DNA of 64,000 nt from the IMG/VR virus record IMGVR_UViG_2718218133_000001. The stretch is one strand, 5' to 3'. The DNA comes from a virus (Duplodnaviria; Heunggongvirae; Uroviricota; Caudoviricetes). Position 1 is the first letter of the stretch, and each line of letters begins with the position of its first letter. The notes under the pieces were generated by a model that was not told the DNA's origin, did no database searches, and saw nothing but the letters and a program-made list of their open reading frames with translations. A program made the translations under genes and the position numbers. Below, piece by piece: positions 23,253 through 28,832 of the stretch.

Positions 23253-23286
23253 ATAACTTCGTATAGCATACATTATACGAAGTTAT
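23253..23286. other. loxP site-specific recombination site
   Basis: Perfect ATAACTTCGTATA-GCATACAT-TATACGAAGTTAT. Confidence 0.97.
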
Positions 23287-23358
23287 CTTAAGGGTTATTG
23301 AACATGATCAATTTACCTGTAAATCCATACAGTTCAATACCTTATCAGGTCAAATAGT

Positions 23359-23378
23359 GATCACTTGATCATTTGATC
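23359..23378 (+). promoter_or_regulatory. GATC cluster in the cre leader (Dam-sensitive promoter region)
   Basis: Three GATC within 20 bp and another at 23306; P1 cre promoters are Dam-regulated, as remembered. Confidence 0.4.
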
Positions 23379-23475
23379 AAGGTTGCGCTACGTAAAATCT
23401 GTGAAATGTTGGCAGTGTTAGTGCTCCAGATTTCGCGTAGCGCACTTAGCACCACCAATCAATCAGAGGTGAAAA

Positions 23476-23697
23476 ATGGGATATTCAGCTGCTAAAGTGT
23501 CCACTCATATTGAGCTTGAGAAAAACCGTGGTTACTGGCGGGCAAAAGGGTTTGATCGTGATAGTTGTCAACTGTCATTATCGCGCGGTGAAGAGAAAAT
23601 AGAACGCACGCGCGGTCGCTGGCGTTTCTATGACGAGAACCATAAACAGGTAAAGGCAGAGCCGATCCTGTACACTTTACTTAAAACCATTATCTGA
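23476..23697 (+). CDS. possible small leader ORF between loxP and cre
   Basis: 73-aa ORF with GAGGTG RBS; may be a real small gene or a non-coding leader. Confidence 0.25.
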   Translation: MGYSAAKVSTHIELEKNRGYWRAKGFDRDSCQLSLSRGEEKIERTRGRWRFYDENHKQVKAEPILYTLLKTII

Positions 23698-23704
23698 GTG
23701 TTAA

Positions 23705-24736
23705 ATGTCCAATTTACTGACCGTACACCAAAATTTGCCTGCATTACCGGTCGATGCAACGAGTGATGAGGTTCGCAAGAACCTGATGGACATGTTCAGG
23801 GATCGCCAGGCGTTTTCTGAGCATACCTGGAAAATGCTTCTGTCCGTTTGCCGATCGTGGGCGGCATGGTGCAAGTTGAATAACCGGAAATGGTTTCCCG
23901 CAGAACCTGAAGATGTTCGCGATTATCTTCTATATCTTCAGGCGCGCGGTCTGGCAGTAAAAACTATCCAGCAACATTTGGGCCAGCTAAACATGCTTCA
24001 TCGTCGGTCCGGGCTGCCACGACCAAGTGACAGTAATGCTGTTTCACTGGTCATGCGACGGATCCGAAAAGAAAACGTTGATGCCGGTGAACGTGCAAAA
24101 CAGGCACTGGCGTTCGAACGCACTGATTTCGACCAGGTTCGTTCACTCATGGAAAATAGCGATCGCTGCCAGGATATACGTAATCTGGCATTTCTGGGGA
24201 TTGCTTATAACACCCTATTACGTATAGCCGAAATTGCCAGGATCAGGGTTAAAGATATCTCACGTACTGACGGTGGGAGAATGTTAATCCATATTGGCAG
24301 AACGAAAACGCTGGTTAGCACCGCAGGTGTAGAGAAGGCACTTAGCCTGGGGGTAACTAAACTGGTCGAGCGATGGATTTCTGTCTCTGGTGTGGCTGAT
24401 GATCCGAATAACTACTTGTTTTGCCGTGTCAGAAAAAATGGTGTTGCCGCGCCATCTGCCACCAGCCAGCTATCAACTCGCGCCCTGGAAGGGATTTTTG
24501 AAGCAACTCATCGATTGATTTACGGCGCTAAGGATGACTCTGGTCAGAGATACCTGGCCTGGTCTGGACACAGTGCCCGTGTCGGAGCCGCGCGAGATAT
24601 GGCCCGCGCCGGAGTTTCAATACCGGAGATCATGCAAGCTGGTGGCTGGACCAACGTAAATATTGTCATGAACTATATCCGTAACCTGGATAGTGAAACG
24701 GGGGCAATGGTGCGCCTGCTGGAAGATGGCGATTAG
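23705..24736 (+). CDS. cre: Cre tyrosine recombinase
   Basis: 343 aa, MSNLLTVHQNLPALPVDATSDEVRKNLMDMFRDRQAFSEHTWKMLLSVCRSWAAWC.. recognised as Cre. Confidence 0.97.
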   Translation: MSNLLTVHQNLPALPVDATSDEVRKNLMDMFRDRQAFSEHTWKMLLSVCRSWAAWCKLNNRKWFPAEPEDVRDYLLYLQARGLAVKTIQQHLGQLNMLHRRSGLPRPSDSNAVSLVMRRIRKENVDAGERAKQALAFERTDFDQVRSLMENSDRCQDIRNLAFLGIAYNTLLRIAEIARIRVKDISRTDGGRMLIHIGRTKTLVSTAGVEKALSLGVTKLVERWISVSGVADDPNNYLFCRVRKNGVAAPSATSQLSTRALEGIFEATHRLIYGAKDDSGQRYLAWSGHSARVGAARDMARAGVSIPEIMQAGGWTNVNIVMNYIRNLDSETGAMVRLLEDGD

Positions 24737-24753
24737 CCGTTCATTTGCGTTTG

Positions 24754-24770
24754 ATTGCTCTAATTATTTG
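24754..24770 (+). promoter_or_regulatory. C1 operator-like 17-mer
   Basis: attgctctaattatttg just after the cre stop. Confidence 0.5.
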
Positions 24771-24786
24771 ATATTTATGGTGACGC

Positions 24787-25098
24787 ATGCGGAAGGATTT
24801 CAAAATAGACGGAAAATATGTGGTGCTGTCTGTAAGCTCTCAAATTCAGTCACCATCTGTCATTGTCACCGTAAAGTTGAGCGATAGGATGCCTGATATC
24901 GACTCGATATCTGTTGCGTTCCCCGTTAAAAGCATGCGGAGTGCTGAACATTTTGTGATGAATGCAACGGAGGAGGAAGCGCGGCGCGGGCTTACTAGAG
25001 TGATGGTGGAATTTGGCGAACTCCTGGGTAAGGTAAACAATGCCCTTTCAATCAGTTCAGCAAGATCCAAAGCGTTAACAGCTTCCATGATGAAATAA
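24787..25098 (+). CDS. hypothetical protein (cra/hxr position)
   Basis: 103-aa ORF; no HTH recognised. Confidence 0.35.
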   Translation: MRKDFKIDGKYVVLSVSSQIQSPSVIVTVKLSDRMPDIDSISVAFPVKSMRSAEHFVMNATEEEARRGLTRVMVEFGELLGKVNNALSISSARSKALTASMMK

Positions 25099-25102
25099 AA
25101 AA

Positions 25103-25123
25103 AGCCTGGCAAGGAGCCAGGCT
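25103..25123 (-). terminator. hairpin with A/T runs, oriented as a minus-strand intrinsic terminator
   Basis: agcctggc-aagg-gccaggct flanked by a9 on the left; reads as hairpin plus U-run only on the minus strand. Confidence 0.35.
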
Positions 25124-25229
25124 GCACAAAAGAGCGGTTTTGTATTCCGCATCCAATCAATCAAGAAGGAGTATAGCACACAGGTACTGAAGTGAAAAAA
25201 TGTGATTCGCGATTAACAAAATATCTACC

Positions 25230-25258
25230 ATTGCTCTAATTGATTGCTATAATTAAGC
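25230..25258 (+). promoter_or_regulatory. tandem overlapping C1 operators upstream of ref
   Basis: attgctctaattgattg and attgctataattaagcc; ref is C1-repressed in P1, as remembered. Confidence 0.55.
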
Positions 25259-25313
25259 CGCAGTTTTTGTCAACTACGAAGACGTTGCCATTACTTAACT
25301 CCTTGACATCATT

Positions 25314-25339
25314 GGCGGCCATTAGGCCGCCTTTTTTTT
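25314..25339 (+). terminator. strong intrinsic terminator/attenuator immediately upstream of the ref ATG
   Basis: ggcggcc-atta-ggccgcc followed by T8, ending 5 nt before the ATG. Confidence 0.6.
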
Positions 25340-25344
25340 GCCAT

Positions 25345-25905
25345 ATGAAAACAATCGAACAAAAACTTGAACAGCGCCGCGAGTGGCAGAAGGCAGCCAG
25401 AGAACGAGCGATCGCTCGGCAACGGGAAAAGTTGGCTGACCCCGCCTGGCGAGAATCGCAATATCAGAAAATGCGGGATTCTATCGACCGCCGTATCGCT
25501 AAACAGAAAGAGCGCCCACCAGCCAGCAAAACGCGGAAAAGTGCGGTAAAGATAAAATCTCGTGGCTTGAAGGGGCGAACATCGACAGCGGAGGAACGGA
25601 GCATCGCCAATGCTCTTGGCGCTCTCCCCTGCATTGCCTGCTACATGCATGGAGTAATATCTGAAGAGGTATCTCTGCACCATATCTCCGGTCGTACCGC
25701 GCCGGGTTGTCACAAAAAGCAATTGCCCCTTTGTAGATGGCACCACCAGCATGCAGCACCGGCTGAAGTAAGAGAAAAATACCCCTGGCTGGTCCCTGTT
25801 CATGCCGATGGTGTGGTTGGAGGCAAGAAAGAATTCACCTTGCTGAACAAGTCAGAGATGGAGTTGCTGGCTGACGCCTATGAGATGGCAAACATCATGC
25901 ACTAA
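25345..25905 (+). CDS. ref: Ref recombination enhancement function (HNH endonuclease)
   Basis: 186 aa starting MKTIEQKLEQRREW; basic N-terminus; C-terminal Cys/His HNH-like motif (CIACYMHG..HHISG..CRWHH). Confidence 0.85.
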   Translation: MKTIEQKLEQRREWQKAARERAIARQREKLADPAWRESQYQKMRDSIDRRIAKQKERPPASKTRKSAVKIKSRGLKGRTSTAEERSIANALGALPCIACYMHGVISEEVSLHHISGRTAPGCHKKQLPLCRWHHQHAAPAEVREKYPWLVPVHADGVVGGKKEFTLLNKSEMELLADAYEMANIMH

Positions 25906-26056
25906 TAAATATATTATTTTTAATCTGAAATAATTGACAACTGACAAGTGACTTCAGTCAGAATCATCACATGCCCGGTACGGATGGATCCCTTTTCAAA
26001 TATTCCATGGACGGCACAGTCTGAGTACCGGGCGCTACCTTCAGTTGTATTGCTAA

Positions 26057-26082
26057 GCCGCCGCTGGTGGCTTTTCTTTTTT
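26057..26082 (+). terminator. possible intrinsic terminator after ref
   Basis: Short GC stem (agccgcc / ggtggct) followed by ttttctttttt. Confidence 0.4.
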
Positions 26083-26094
26083 GTAGGGGGCGCT

Positions 26095-26736
26095 ATGGAT
26101 AAGAAAATATGCGTTGTTTCGATGAGCGTCGGCAAACCGGCGTCAATGACTGCTGCATGGATCAACAATGAGCTAATAATGGCTGAGCGGACCAGCTACC
26201 CTGAACGCCGCCGCGATATGGAACTCCAGCTGCTGCGCGAATTGCGAGAAAAAGAGGAAAAGGGTTTTATCGTGCTGGTGGAAGAGGAAAACAGCTTTAT
26301 TACTGGTCGAGTTGGCCAGCGTGTAAGGTTGCGCGATCCCTTCATGAACGGCAGACCGGTACTGATTGAAGCAATGCAGATTTACAAGGAATTGGAACGC
26401 CAGAAAGCGATCAAGTTACCGCGCAAGGAATCCGGCAAATACATCCTTCACCAAAGCATCTTCGATTCCGAACACGATAAAAAAGGCGATGAATTTTTCA
26501 ACATCAACTGGAGCGAAATAACGACAGAACATGTTCTGACGTTACTATGTTGCTTTGCGACGGAATACAACAACGTTGCCAGCGCCGACTACATCAGGGC
26601 AATGGTTGGAGAAGTTGAGGCCCGCCAGGAACCATCGTTACTAAGCCCTCTGATTAACATAATTCGCGGAACCCAAACGCTGGCACAAAAACAGGTGCCT
26701 AAGGGAGTATTAACAGGAAAAGGAAATTATCTATAA
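26095..26736 (+). CDS. hypothetical protein (backbone-like GC; possibly the P1 mat equivalent)
   Basis: First ATG with AGGGGG RBS inside track ORF 25948..26736; composition like the P1 backbone, unlike the AT-rich gene downstream. Confidence 0.4.
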   Translation: MDKKICVVSMSVGKPASMTAAWINNELIMAERTSYPERRRDMELQLLRELREKEEKGFIVLVEEENSFITGRVGQRVRLRDPFMNGRPVLIEAMQIYKELERQKAIKLPRKESGKYILHQSIFDSEHDKKGDEFFNINWSEITTEHVLTLLCCFATEYNNVASADYIRAMVGEVEARQEPSLLSPLINIIRGTQTLAQKQVPKGVLTGKGNYL

Positions 26737-26792
26737 ACGTCAATGCATTAGGGTATACTTCTCCGTAGAACTATAAGTAAATGGAGTAAGTA

Positions 26793-28100
26793 ATGAGCGA
26801 ATATGTTGAGTTAGCATACGCTGCCGCTACAAGCAGGCTTTGTCTATTTACCGGGACTGGCTTTTCAAAGGCAGTCTCGAACGGTGAAGCTCCAACGTGG
26901 AAGGAACTATTAAAAAAAGTTTGCAGCAAAGTTCACAATGCCAAAAAGTTGGAAGACACGTTATTCCCTGATGATAAACCACCAGCACTGAGTCTTGAAG
27001 AAGCCGCACAAATACTATCTTTGAAGCTCAATATTGAGGGTAAGTCGATTTATGATGAAATTGTTGACATCATATCTCCAATTCAACTTGGAGAAGACAT
27101 ATCAAATATAAAAGATTTTTTCCAAAAAAACTCATTCCGTGTCATTACAACAAATTATGACAAGTTGGCTGAATGCTTGGTTGGAGATGAAAGTGTGCAG
27201 TCTATCACGCCCGGCCTGCCAATTCCAAAGTATCCATCCAAGGTGAAAATATATCATGTTCATGGTTCTATTGATTCGCCAAAAAATATGATTGTCACTT
27301 CAGATGATTACTTCAGATTTATAAATTCCGATACTTATTTTTCACGAAAACTTAGTACGATGCTGCATGAAAATACAGTTGCGATATTAGGGTATTCTTT
27401 AAGCGACACAAATCTTAAAGCAATTATAAATGACTATAAAAAATTTTCGAAAAATAATGCCCTGTGCTCTAATATCTTTTTGATATCTCGCAACAAAGTA
27501 AGTCAAGATATGAAGGATTATTACTTCTATTGCTTTGGTATAAGGGTAATTGACAATACAGAAATAGATTGTTTCTTTAGTCGATTAAGTTATAAGATTT
27601 CTCTCATTAAAGACATCATTGAAAGAGCGCGCGAAAATATCAGAAAAGTTGTTTCGGGGGCTTACACTTATAAAAATGAATATCTTAAATTAGAGGATTC
27701 ATTTTATCAAATTATATCATCAATTATATCGGAAGGTTTAGATTGGAATGATGATAAAGTCGTTTCTCTTTTCGAAAGGATAATAGAAAAAAAGAGAAAG
27801 TTAACAAGGAATAACGGAGCGTGGGAGCAATATGAACAGTTGGCAAAATGGCTTATATATTTTGGAAGCATCATAGAGGTTAGCAATACTAAGTATGAAA
27901 AAACATATTTAGACGCAGTTGAATACTCGATGGGTCATATGAGTAAAGAAAGGAATTGGGGAGTTTCTTGGCATGCTTACAGAGCTTGGGAAACACGATG
28001 GCCTGCAATAATTGCCTCAAATAGATTAATGATAAAAAACCACATTGAAACATTAGGCACCTTGAAGGACGCCAACCTTATAGTTAAGAATATAGTGTAA
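26793..28100 (+). CDS. stand-alone SIR2-like (SIR2_2/ThsA-type) putative NAD+-hydrolysing defence protein with uncharacterised C-terminal domain
   Basis: 435 aa; motifs in canonical order: LFTGTGFSKA, ITTNYDKL, YHVHGSIDSP, ILGYSLSDTNL; putative catalytic Asn and His present; GGAG RBS; clearly more AT-rich than the flanking genes. Confidence 0.8.
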   Translation: MSEYVELAYAAATSRLCLFTGTGFSKAVSNGEAPTWKELLKKVCSKVHNAKKLEDTLFPDDKPPALSLEEAAQILSLKLNIEGKSIYDEIVDIISPIQLGEDISNIKDFFQKNSFRVITTNYDKLAECLVGDESVQSITPGLPIPKYPSKVKIYHVHGSIDSPKNMIVTSDDYFRFINSDTYFSRKLSTMLHENTVAILGYSLSDTNLKAIINDYKKFSKNNALCSNIFLISRNKVSQDMKDYYFYCFGIRVIDNTEIDCFFSRLSYKISLIKDIIERARENIRKVVSGAYTYKNEYLKLEDSFYQIISSIISEGLDWNDDKVVSLFERIIEKKRKLTRNNGAWEQYEQLAKWLIYFGSIIEVSNTKYEKTYLDAVEYSMGHMSKERNWGVSWHAYRAWETRWPAIIASNRLMIKNHIETLGTLKDANLIVKNIV

Positions 28101-28116
28101 TTGTGGTCGATAAAAA

Positions 28117-28146
28117 TTTATCGGGCAGATAAAACTGCCCGATAAA
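28117..28146. terminator. bidirectional intrinsic terminator between convergent genes
   Basis: tttatcgggcag-ataaaa-ctgcccgataaa; 11-12 bp stem with A/T runs on both sides. Confidence 0.6.
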
Positions 28147-28395
28147 TTAATCAGCATTCAGGAGCAATGCGTTATCTATGATGATCTGCTCCCATTCTTC
28201 GAATGCCCGGTCACGGACGCCCTGGGGAACGCTGTTAGTTTTGAAATCGACGACCGTACGCCATTTCCCGTCCGGACGGTACATGCGCAGAGCTTTACTT
28301 CCCCCTTCCCTGCGCACCTCAACGTTATGCTTATCAGCAAACTCTTGTAATGCTCGTAGCGTCCCATGCTTTACTGTGTAGTATCGCTTTTTCAA
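28147..28395 (-). CDS. small protein, candidate Lxc/Bof by synteny and size
   Basis: 82-aa ORF (TTG start in track) downstream of the ulx-position gene and darB. Confidence 0.45.
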   Translation of the reverse strand: MKKRYYTVKHGTLRALQEFADKHNVEVRREGGSKALRMYRPDGKWRTVVDFKTNSVPQGVRDRAFEEWEQIIIDNALLLNAD

Positions 28396-28832
28396 GTTTT
28401 CTCTCCAGCCTGTGCTAAGGCTTCAACTTCCAAATCGTAAGACTCAAACTCATAGTCCTGGTCGTCAACCTCTTCAGGCACTGGCAGTAAATGCCAGGCT
28501 GAGTATATCTGACCATTATCAAAACGCTCCTGGCTGTAGAGCGTCGCAGCTATGAGCGTCAGCGCCGGGCGGTCATAACGGTAAATTTTGCGAACGTCAC
28601 GGTCAACGAGACGACCGAAATTACCATAACCGCGCTCCAGTAATAATTTTTTAATTTCCGGCCAGTATGGACCATAGCTGCGGTACAGGCGGGGATTTTT
28701 CAGTAATCGCCCGCGTAGCCCTGACAGGAAGAAATCAACGTATTCGTCTTCTGTCTTTCCTAACAACGCTGTACGGAGTACCGCCTCAAGATATGTTTTA
28801 TTCGGTTTTATTGTATCAGATAGTGTGGCCAT
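28392..28832 (-). CDS. hypothetical protein (ulx position, between darB and lxc)
   Basis: 146-aa ORF immediately downstream of darB on the same strand. Confidence 0.45.
   Translation of the reverse strand: MATLSDTIKPNKTYLEAVLRTALLGKTEDEYVDFFLSGLRGRLLKNPRLYRSYGPYWPEIKKLLLERGYGNFGRLVDRDVRKIYRYDRPALTLIAATLYSQERFDNGQIYSAWHLLPVPEEVDDQDYEFESYDLEVEALAQAGEKT

Follow-up and report, generated by a model that had tools for sequence, protein, structure and literature searches.

The gene preceding SIR2 in a P1-like phage-plasmid is very probably the backbone gene mat and not a partner of SIR2

The open reading frame of 213 codons that precedes a SIR2 gene on a P1-like phage-plasmid is almost certainly mat, a conserved backbone gene and not part of the SIR2 cargo; its adjacency to SIR2 is positional, and the SIR2 cassette sits in the slot occupied in P1 by res and mod. 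The gene is thus an ordinary, previously annotated member of the backbone. The window analysed here is a stretch of 64,000 nucleotides from such a phage-plasmid, and the features under discussion are collected in Table 1. Comparative data, as far as they reach, refute the idea that this gene and SIR2 make up a two-gene system, and no functional tie of mat to SIR2 is detectable in the loci and records compared.

Table 1. Features in and around the mat-lxc slot (window coordinates)
Feature	Position	Strand	Basis or remarks
cre	23705-24736		ORF list
C1 repressor operator Omat	25896..25913	-	identical to annotated P1 Omat, P1 2628-2645
Pmat (sigma-70: -35 TTGACA, -10 CAGAAT) overlapping late promoter LPmat (-22 box AAGTGACTT)	25934..25964	+	annotated P1 elements 2666-2696, identical
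mat 5' leader (first 37 codons of the 250-aa Mat in the P1 record)	25965..26094	+	hairpin 26055-26073 with T-run (to 26083); SD AGGGGG 26085-26090
mat (maturation control protein), 213 aa (MDKKICVV...)	26095..26736	+	ATG 26095; TAA 26734-26736
mat 3' tail, recombination shoulder of the slot (Mat residues 171-213)	26605..26736	+	GC3 and allele comparison
Candidate sigma-70 cargo promoter TTAACA-N16-TATAAA	26710..26737	+	consensus 10/12; -10 overlaps mat stop codon
mat-SIR2 spacer, 56 nt	26737..26792	+	SD GGAG at 26783-26786; read directly
SIR2 gene, 435 aa, cargo of the slot	26793..28100	+	PF13289 SIR2_2, E 1.1e-23
SIR2-lxc spacer	28101..28146		hairpin GGGCAG...CTGCCC; read directly
lxc (28147-28395) and ulx (28392-28832)	28147..28832	-	backbone, right border of the slot; 97-99% identical to P1, RCS47 and SJ46

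Central to the identification is the likeness to P1. When both proteins are read from the start annotated in P1, the Mat of the window and P1 Mat (YP_006475.1, P1_gp006) agree at 240 of 250 residues (96%), residues 1-199 being identical and 11 substitutions all falling within the last 51 residues. DNA identity of the reading frame to the mat genes of P1, P7, RCS47, SJ46 and other Punavirus members is 93-98%, and phrog_1837 matches the protein over residues 1-213 (4.3e-113), the PHROG families that Mat matches being exclusively of unknown function. These annotated matches, together with full-length relatives down to ~20% identity, establish that the reading frame is a real gene. The gene order cre-c8-ref-mat-[slot]-lxc-ulx-darB is common to the window and P1: the Ref nuclease gene ends at 25905, with PacA and PacB encoded upstream, and DarB (2255 aa, minus strand) lies beyond the slot. 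Moreover, the control region carries the same Omat and the same Pmat/LPmat as P1, the facts on mat regulation being taken from the P1 GenBank annotation, such that full-length similarity, position between ref and lxc-ulx-darB and the control region all agree with membership in P1 Mat. Two features set the window apart, namely a same-strand SIR2 gene in the slot where P1 has the convergent res-mod genes, and a favoured start codon 37 codons further downstream than in the P1 record. On the need for mat in P1 the literature is mixed: it has been counted essential from amber mutants, although CRISPRi knock-down lowered the EOP only to 0.28 (PMC10695390).

The original prediction, made from the letters of this DNA, had placed a 213-residue reading frame 56 nt upstream of SIR2, with backbone-like base composition and no terminator in between. 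The list of open reading frames agrees with these coordinates, and a terminator scan of 25800-28450 predicts no plus-strand terminator between 26074 and 28100, while the RNA of the mat-SIR2 spacer folds no better than shuffled sequences (z -0.07). The GC content of mat is 47.2%, close to that of the window (48.2%), cre (50.4%) and darB (51.9%), as against 34.9% for SIR2. The alignment to P1 Mat that had been proposed as a check gives the clear identity described above.

The borders of the slot are sharp. Collinearity with P1 extends over 23270-26730, ending six bases before the mat stop, and takes up again at the lxc stop codon (28147); the AT-rich SIR2 cassette of 1.4 kb therefore replaces the res-mod genes of P1, where the slot measures 6.3 kb and holds res and mod (type III restriction-modification) and IS5 on the opposite strand. 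Other relatives carry other contents at the same place: in RCS47 the slot is empty, reduced to 39 bp with one GC-rich hairpin; SJ46 has a RelA/SpoT-family gene, AP026755 two hypothetical genes, CP126933 and CP057856 a DUF2971 gene on the other strand, CP081715 an EAL-domain gene, IS5 and an HTH gene, and NC_017653 a disrupted SIR2 gene. mat is present in every slot state compared. That the res-mod slot is variable is already known and published. In PMC9603915, res-mod is one of eight low-GC, highly variable regions of P1-like phage-plasmids, and the segment described here agrees with that region 1 in being the same replaceable low-GC segment bordered by mat and lxc. It differs from it in that its content is a single SIR2 gene. 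An exchanged segment reaching ~130 nt into mat, as found here, is a feature of which the sections of PMC9603915 consulted contain no description.

How far the two genes depend on each other can be judged from their separate distributions. The SIR2 gene has homologues in at least 678 clusters (~434 aa) from Xenorhabdus, Pantoea, Vibrio, Pseudomonas, Halomonas, Rhizobium and many others; Mat forms 56 clusters, all from enterobacterial contigs of ~95 kb. Among plasmid records, 695 carry mat and 60 carry this SIR2, and ~91% of the mat carriers are without SIR2. All carriers of the SIR2 cassette that were found are filed as plasmids, megablast of the cassette (26700-28150) against 50,697 phage records gave no match, and the carriers examined have it in the mat-lxc slot, in three allele groups of ~100, 87-85 and 83% identity. 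Further, 80 loci around SIR2 relatives were fetched, one genome per species and 927 kb in total, in which tblastn with Mat found no match at E<=10, the positive controls P1, RCS47 and SJ46 giving 1e-129 to 1e-156. Clustering of the reading frames within 3.5 kb of SIR2 revealed no conserved neighbour, no flanking family occurring in more than 4 of ~70 loci. With neither Mat nor any shared flanking family, the SIR2 gene therefore stands alone elsewhere; an E. coli chromosomal homologue (60% identical), for example, adjoins a prophage integrase and is without Mat. SIR2 homologues in other genomes are thus never preceded by a homologue of the reading frame, contrary to what a partnership would have called for, and the suggestion that the gene might be the second component of a two-gene SIR2 system falls with it (no Mat in 80 loci, 695 against 60 records). 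The earlier leaning toward a conserved gene in the mat position, over co-acquired cargo, holds up on the same observation and on the identity to P1 Mat.

The known multi-gene SIR2 systems (Thoeris ThsA/ThsB, SIR2-HerA, SIR2/pAgo) have a co-occurring partner with a characteristic domain, and neither is found here. Mat has no matches in Pfam, NCBIfam or PADLOC and hence no TIR, HerA or pAgo/APAZ domain, and the SIR2 gene of the window, unlike those systems, is without a SLOG, TIR, HerA or pAgo partner. Its product has a SIR2_2 domain with invariant TTNYD and H-x-HGS motifs, for which the SIR2 domains of ThsA, LmuA, Dsr1 and Dsr2 were the relatives compared; it scores 26 and 22 bits against Dsr1 and Dsr2, for which the NCBIfam cut-offs are 1400. 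The best PADLOC match is PDC-S25, a single-gene SIR2 candidate (1.4e-26, covering residues 100-259 only), with which the gene shares, beside the HMM match, the property of standing alone; a search of the literature on PDC-S25 found no experimental report of anti-phage activity. The SIR2 gene is stand-alone cargo and a candidate defence gene.

Natural cases with only one of the two genes intact are also at hand. In NC_017653 (plasmid p12579_1 of E. coli O55:H7 RM12579), SIR2 is split into two open reading frames (6608-7911), probably a pseudogene, next to an intact mat, and in CP057733 an intact SIR2 adjoins a mat that has lost its promoter and ~83 codons to a Tn3-family transposon. In p12579_1, genes for an MBL-fold hydrolase, an HTH protein and an ester cyclase take the place of the ref region. 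As a separate observation, a protein on four contigs (the longest 14.8 kb) joins residues 1-80 of Mat in frame to a SIR2 that starts at about residue 125, probably the result of a deletion that removed the N-terminal part of the SIR2 domain.

The two ends of mat differ in composition and conservation. The first 510 nt are 96-100% identical across all cargo states and have a GC3 of 0.58. In the last 132 nt the GC3 falls to 0.34, close to the 0.33 of SIR2, and the last 66 nt share 92-100% identity within the SIR2 carriers, as against 52-76% in other cargo states. With a uniform core, a tail allele that follows the cargo and a drop in GC3, it follows that cassette exchange crosses over inside mat. 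Since its sequence tracks the cargo, the last ~130 nt of the gene are not pure backbone, and the last ~40 codons appear to travel with the cargo. The near-invariant last 66 nt and spacer among SIR2 carriers could, taken alone, be read as co-adaptation. However, the terminal motif VP-G-LTGK-N-[YI]-[LF] is found in every tail allele, including that of the empty site and those of lineages in which mat precedes gene 26, and the pattern as a whole points to linkage and not to co-adaptation.

The only plausible link between mat and SIR2 would then lie in cis, by read-through from Pmat/LPmat, by a promoter in the last codons of mat, or by both. It is quite conceivable, if somewhat short of probable, that expression of SIR2 needs the DNA of mat in one of these ways and not the Mat protein, a reading that is compatible with the identification of mat as backbone. 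The promoter-like element TTAACA-N16-TATAAA over the mat stop is kept in five of five SIR2 carriers; at the same position, two other plus-strand cargo types have TATAAT, and empty or minus-strand states have poor hexamers. The spacer, with one mismatch, is conserved far beyond the SIR2 coding sequence, whose alleles are 13-17% apart. On the other hand, the case for the promoter is one of consensus matches, its -10 box is without the final T, a standard scan did not list it, and only three independent alleles were compared with four, which makes it a lead only; it may drive SIR2 in the lysogen. As for read-through, a hairpin follows mat in each of RCS47, P1 and SJ46 and none does so in the window. 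With no predicted terminator between the genes, transcripts from Pmat/LPmat could read into SIR2, and mat and SIR2 may share a transcript. Against this, Pmat is C1-repressed and the mat leader contains a terminator-like hairpin, so that read-through may be weak in lysogens.

The leader also bears on the start of the protein. No stop codon interrupts the frame between a GTG at 25948 and the TAA, and the P1 GenBank record, along with some database entries, gives a long form of Mat, which would make the true product a protein of 250 residues starting at 25984. That reading is very unlikely. Each of the 32 distant homologues aligned starts at the short ATG, and none has the 37-residue extension; the strong SD AGGGGG stands 4 nt before 26095, as against only ACGG before 25984; the nucleotides of the leader are kept in the 73% and 58% lineages, in which indels shift the frame between lineages; and the 213-residue form is the one used in RCS47, SJ46 and NCBI-annotated plasmid records. 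The 37 codons, moreover, coincide with a hairpin and T-run, and a PHROG search with the extension gave no match. The start at 26095 implied by the original prediction is therefore better supported than that of the P1 record, and the extension annotated in P1 is predicted to be a non-coding leader. A hairpin with a T-run just before the SD recurs in five lineages with a different stem in each. Since the energy z-score of the hairpin is unremarkable, the case for it is one of shape and recurrence across lineages and not of energy; Rfam gave no match on 25850-26850. The leader could serve as an attenuator between Pmat/LPmat and mat. A long-range leader stem (GCCCGGUA / UACCGGGC) was also seen to have a few compensatory changes among lineages.

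Two further readings give the Mat protein itself a role toward the cargo. It is highly improbable that each cargo has its own protein-level adaptation of the tail (residues 171-213): tail alleles do track the cargo, but the SIR2-linked tail differs from the empty-site tail of RCS47 at only 3 of 43 residues, the terminal motif is common to all alleles, disorder is predicted for the tail (pLDDT below 50), and linkage to a recombination hotspot yields just such a pattern. The least probable of all, that Mat is the sensor or partner of a SIR2 effector in a two-gene defence system, has in its favour the adjacency on one strand across 56 nt with no predicted terminator and the link between tail allele and SIR2 cargo, and is contradicted by the many mat-bearing plasmids without SIR2, by the at least seven other slot states that mat adjoins (one of them empty), by the lack of Mat or any conserved neighbour at SIR2 homologues, by NC_017653 and CP057733, by the want of any PADLOC or defence-domain match in Mat, and by the place of mat in other lineages as part of a tail/baseplate operon.

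That place becomes visible with the distant relatives of Mat. A word-index search with the Mat alignment gave few of them, and an exhaustive HMMER search returned 95 representatives at E<=1e-3, many full-length (200-230 aa) at 20-41% identity. Six divergent lineages, with identities of 73, 58, 44, 42, 40 and 24%, have mat immediately ahead of, and on one strand with, homologues of P1 genes 26, 25, 7, 24, 6 and 5 in that order, which form the late baseplate/tail operon of P1 and have their counterparts in the window at 2-2648 on the minus strand; none of these six loci has SIR2. In P1 and the window, mat and the gene 26-25-7-24-6-5 operon lie ~23 kb apart, and the comparison argues that the P1 arrangement is derived. 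Across the wider family, mat would thus be the first gene of a morphogenesis operon, in keeping with its classical name, and its place beside the cargo slot in P1 and P7 would be the derived state. In one metagenomic lineage (L099, 3972-4979), an N6/N4 DNA methyltransferase gene separates the homologues of genes 26 and 25 in the stretch that directly follows mat.

What Mat does may be approached through its predicted fold. An AF2 model, built from only 13 sequences, has residues 1-160 at pLDDT above 80, and this predicted fold resembles the RNase H-like nuclease domain of the terminase type. The comparators E217 TerL (8dkr), T4 gp17 (3cpe) and G20c (5m1f) have 7-10% sequence identity to Mat, and unlike the large terminases, Mat is free-standing, of 213 residues and without an ATPase domain. 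Across 33 homologues, the two acidic residues at 63-64 never vary and E145-H146 is frequent, while positions 5-11 read I-x-V-V-[STC]-L-S, with no conserved D or E on strand 1, where the canonical Asp is absent; these positions were mapped by secondary structure and not by residue-level superposition. At the level of sequence, Mat has no Pfam terminase match, and its profile found no terminase among PDB sequences, the only matches being insignificant ones to ABC-ATPases. The possibility that Mat is a recent duplicate of the PacB nuclease domain was considered and rejected, hhalign of the Mat profile against PacB giving a probability of 0.5%. Equally rejected was the notion that Mat supplies a nuclease missing from the P1 terminase: PacB is itself a full-length TerL, matching phrog_2 over residues 32-473, which makes Mat an additional protein and not a domain that the terminase lacks.

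With a terminase-nuclease-like predicted fold and the first place in a baseplate/tail operon, Mat would most likely act in virion or DNA maturation. One tentative proposal, less likely than not and the weakest step of the argument, is that Mat is terminase-nuclease-like with an incomplete active site and serves the maturation of DNA or particles through binding and not through canonical cleavage. A fuller version is a little less likely still: Mat would be a free-standing relative of the terminase nuclease domain, probably degenerate in its catalysis, with an ancestral place at the head of the baseplate/tail operon and control over DNA or particle maturation, its conserved structured leader with the terminator-like hairpin giving attenuation and its last codons doubling as a promoter for same-strand cargo. 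If this were true, mat would belong to the backbone while its 3' end had come to serve as an expression adaptor for the defence genes exchanged beside it.

Given the identification as mat, SIR2 counts here as a single-gene cargo of the known res-mod slot, and mat is to be left out when a defence system is cloned or scored. For P1 biology, the predicted by-products are a corrected start codon for mat, a fold hint linking Mat to terminase nucleases, an ancestral link of mat to the baseplate/tail operon and a cassette exchange that crosses over inside mat.

Finally, the interval between ref and mat, on the other side of the gene, has the look of another site for cargo. Its content varies in the Salmonella-type (73%) and 58% lineages (L095-L098), where it includes Tad2-like and Sequestin anti-defence genes and a HigB/HTH toxin-antitoxin pair, and the transposons Tn1721 and TnAs3 lie in or beside the ref-mat interval of SJ46 and CP057733.
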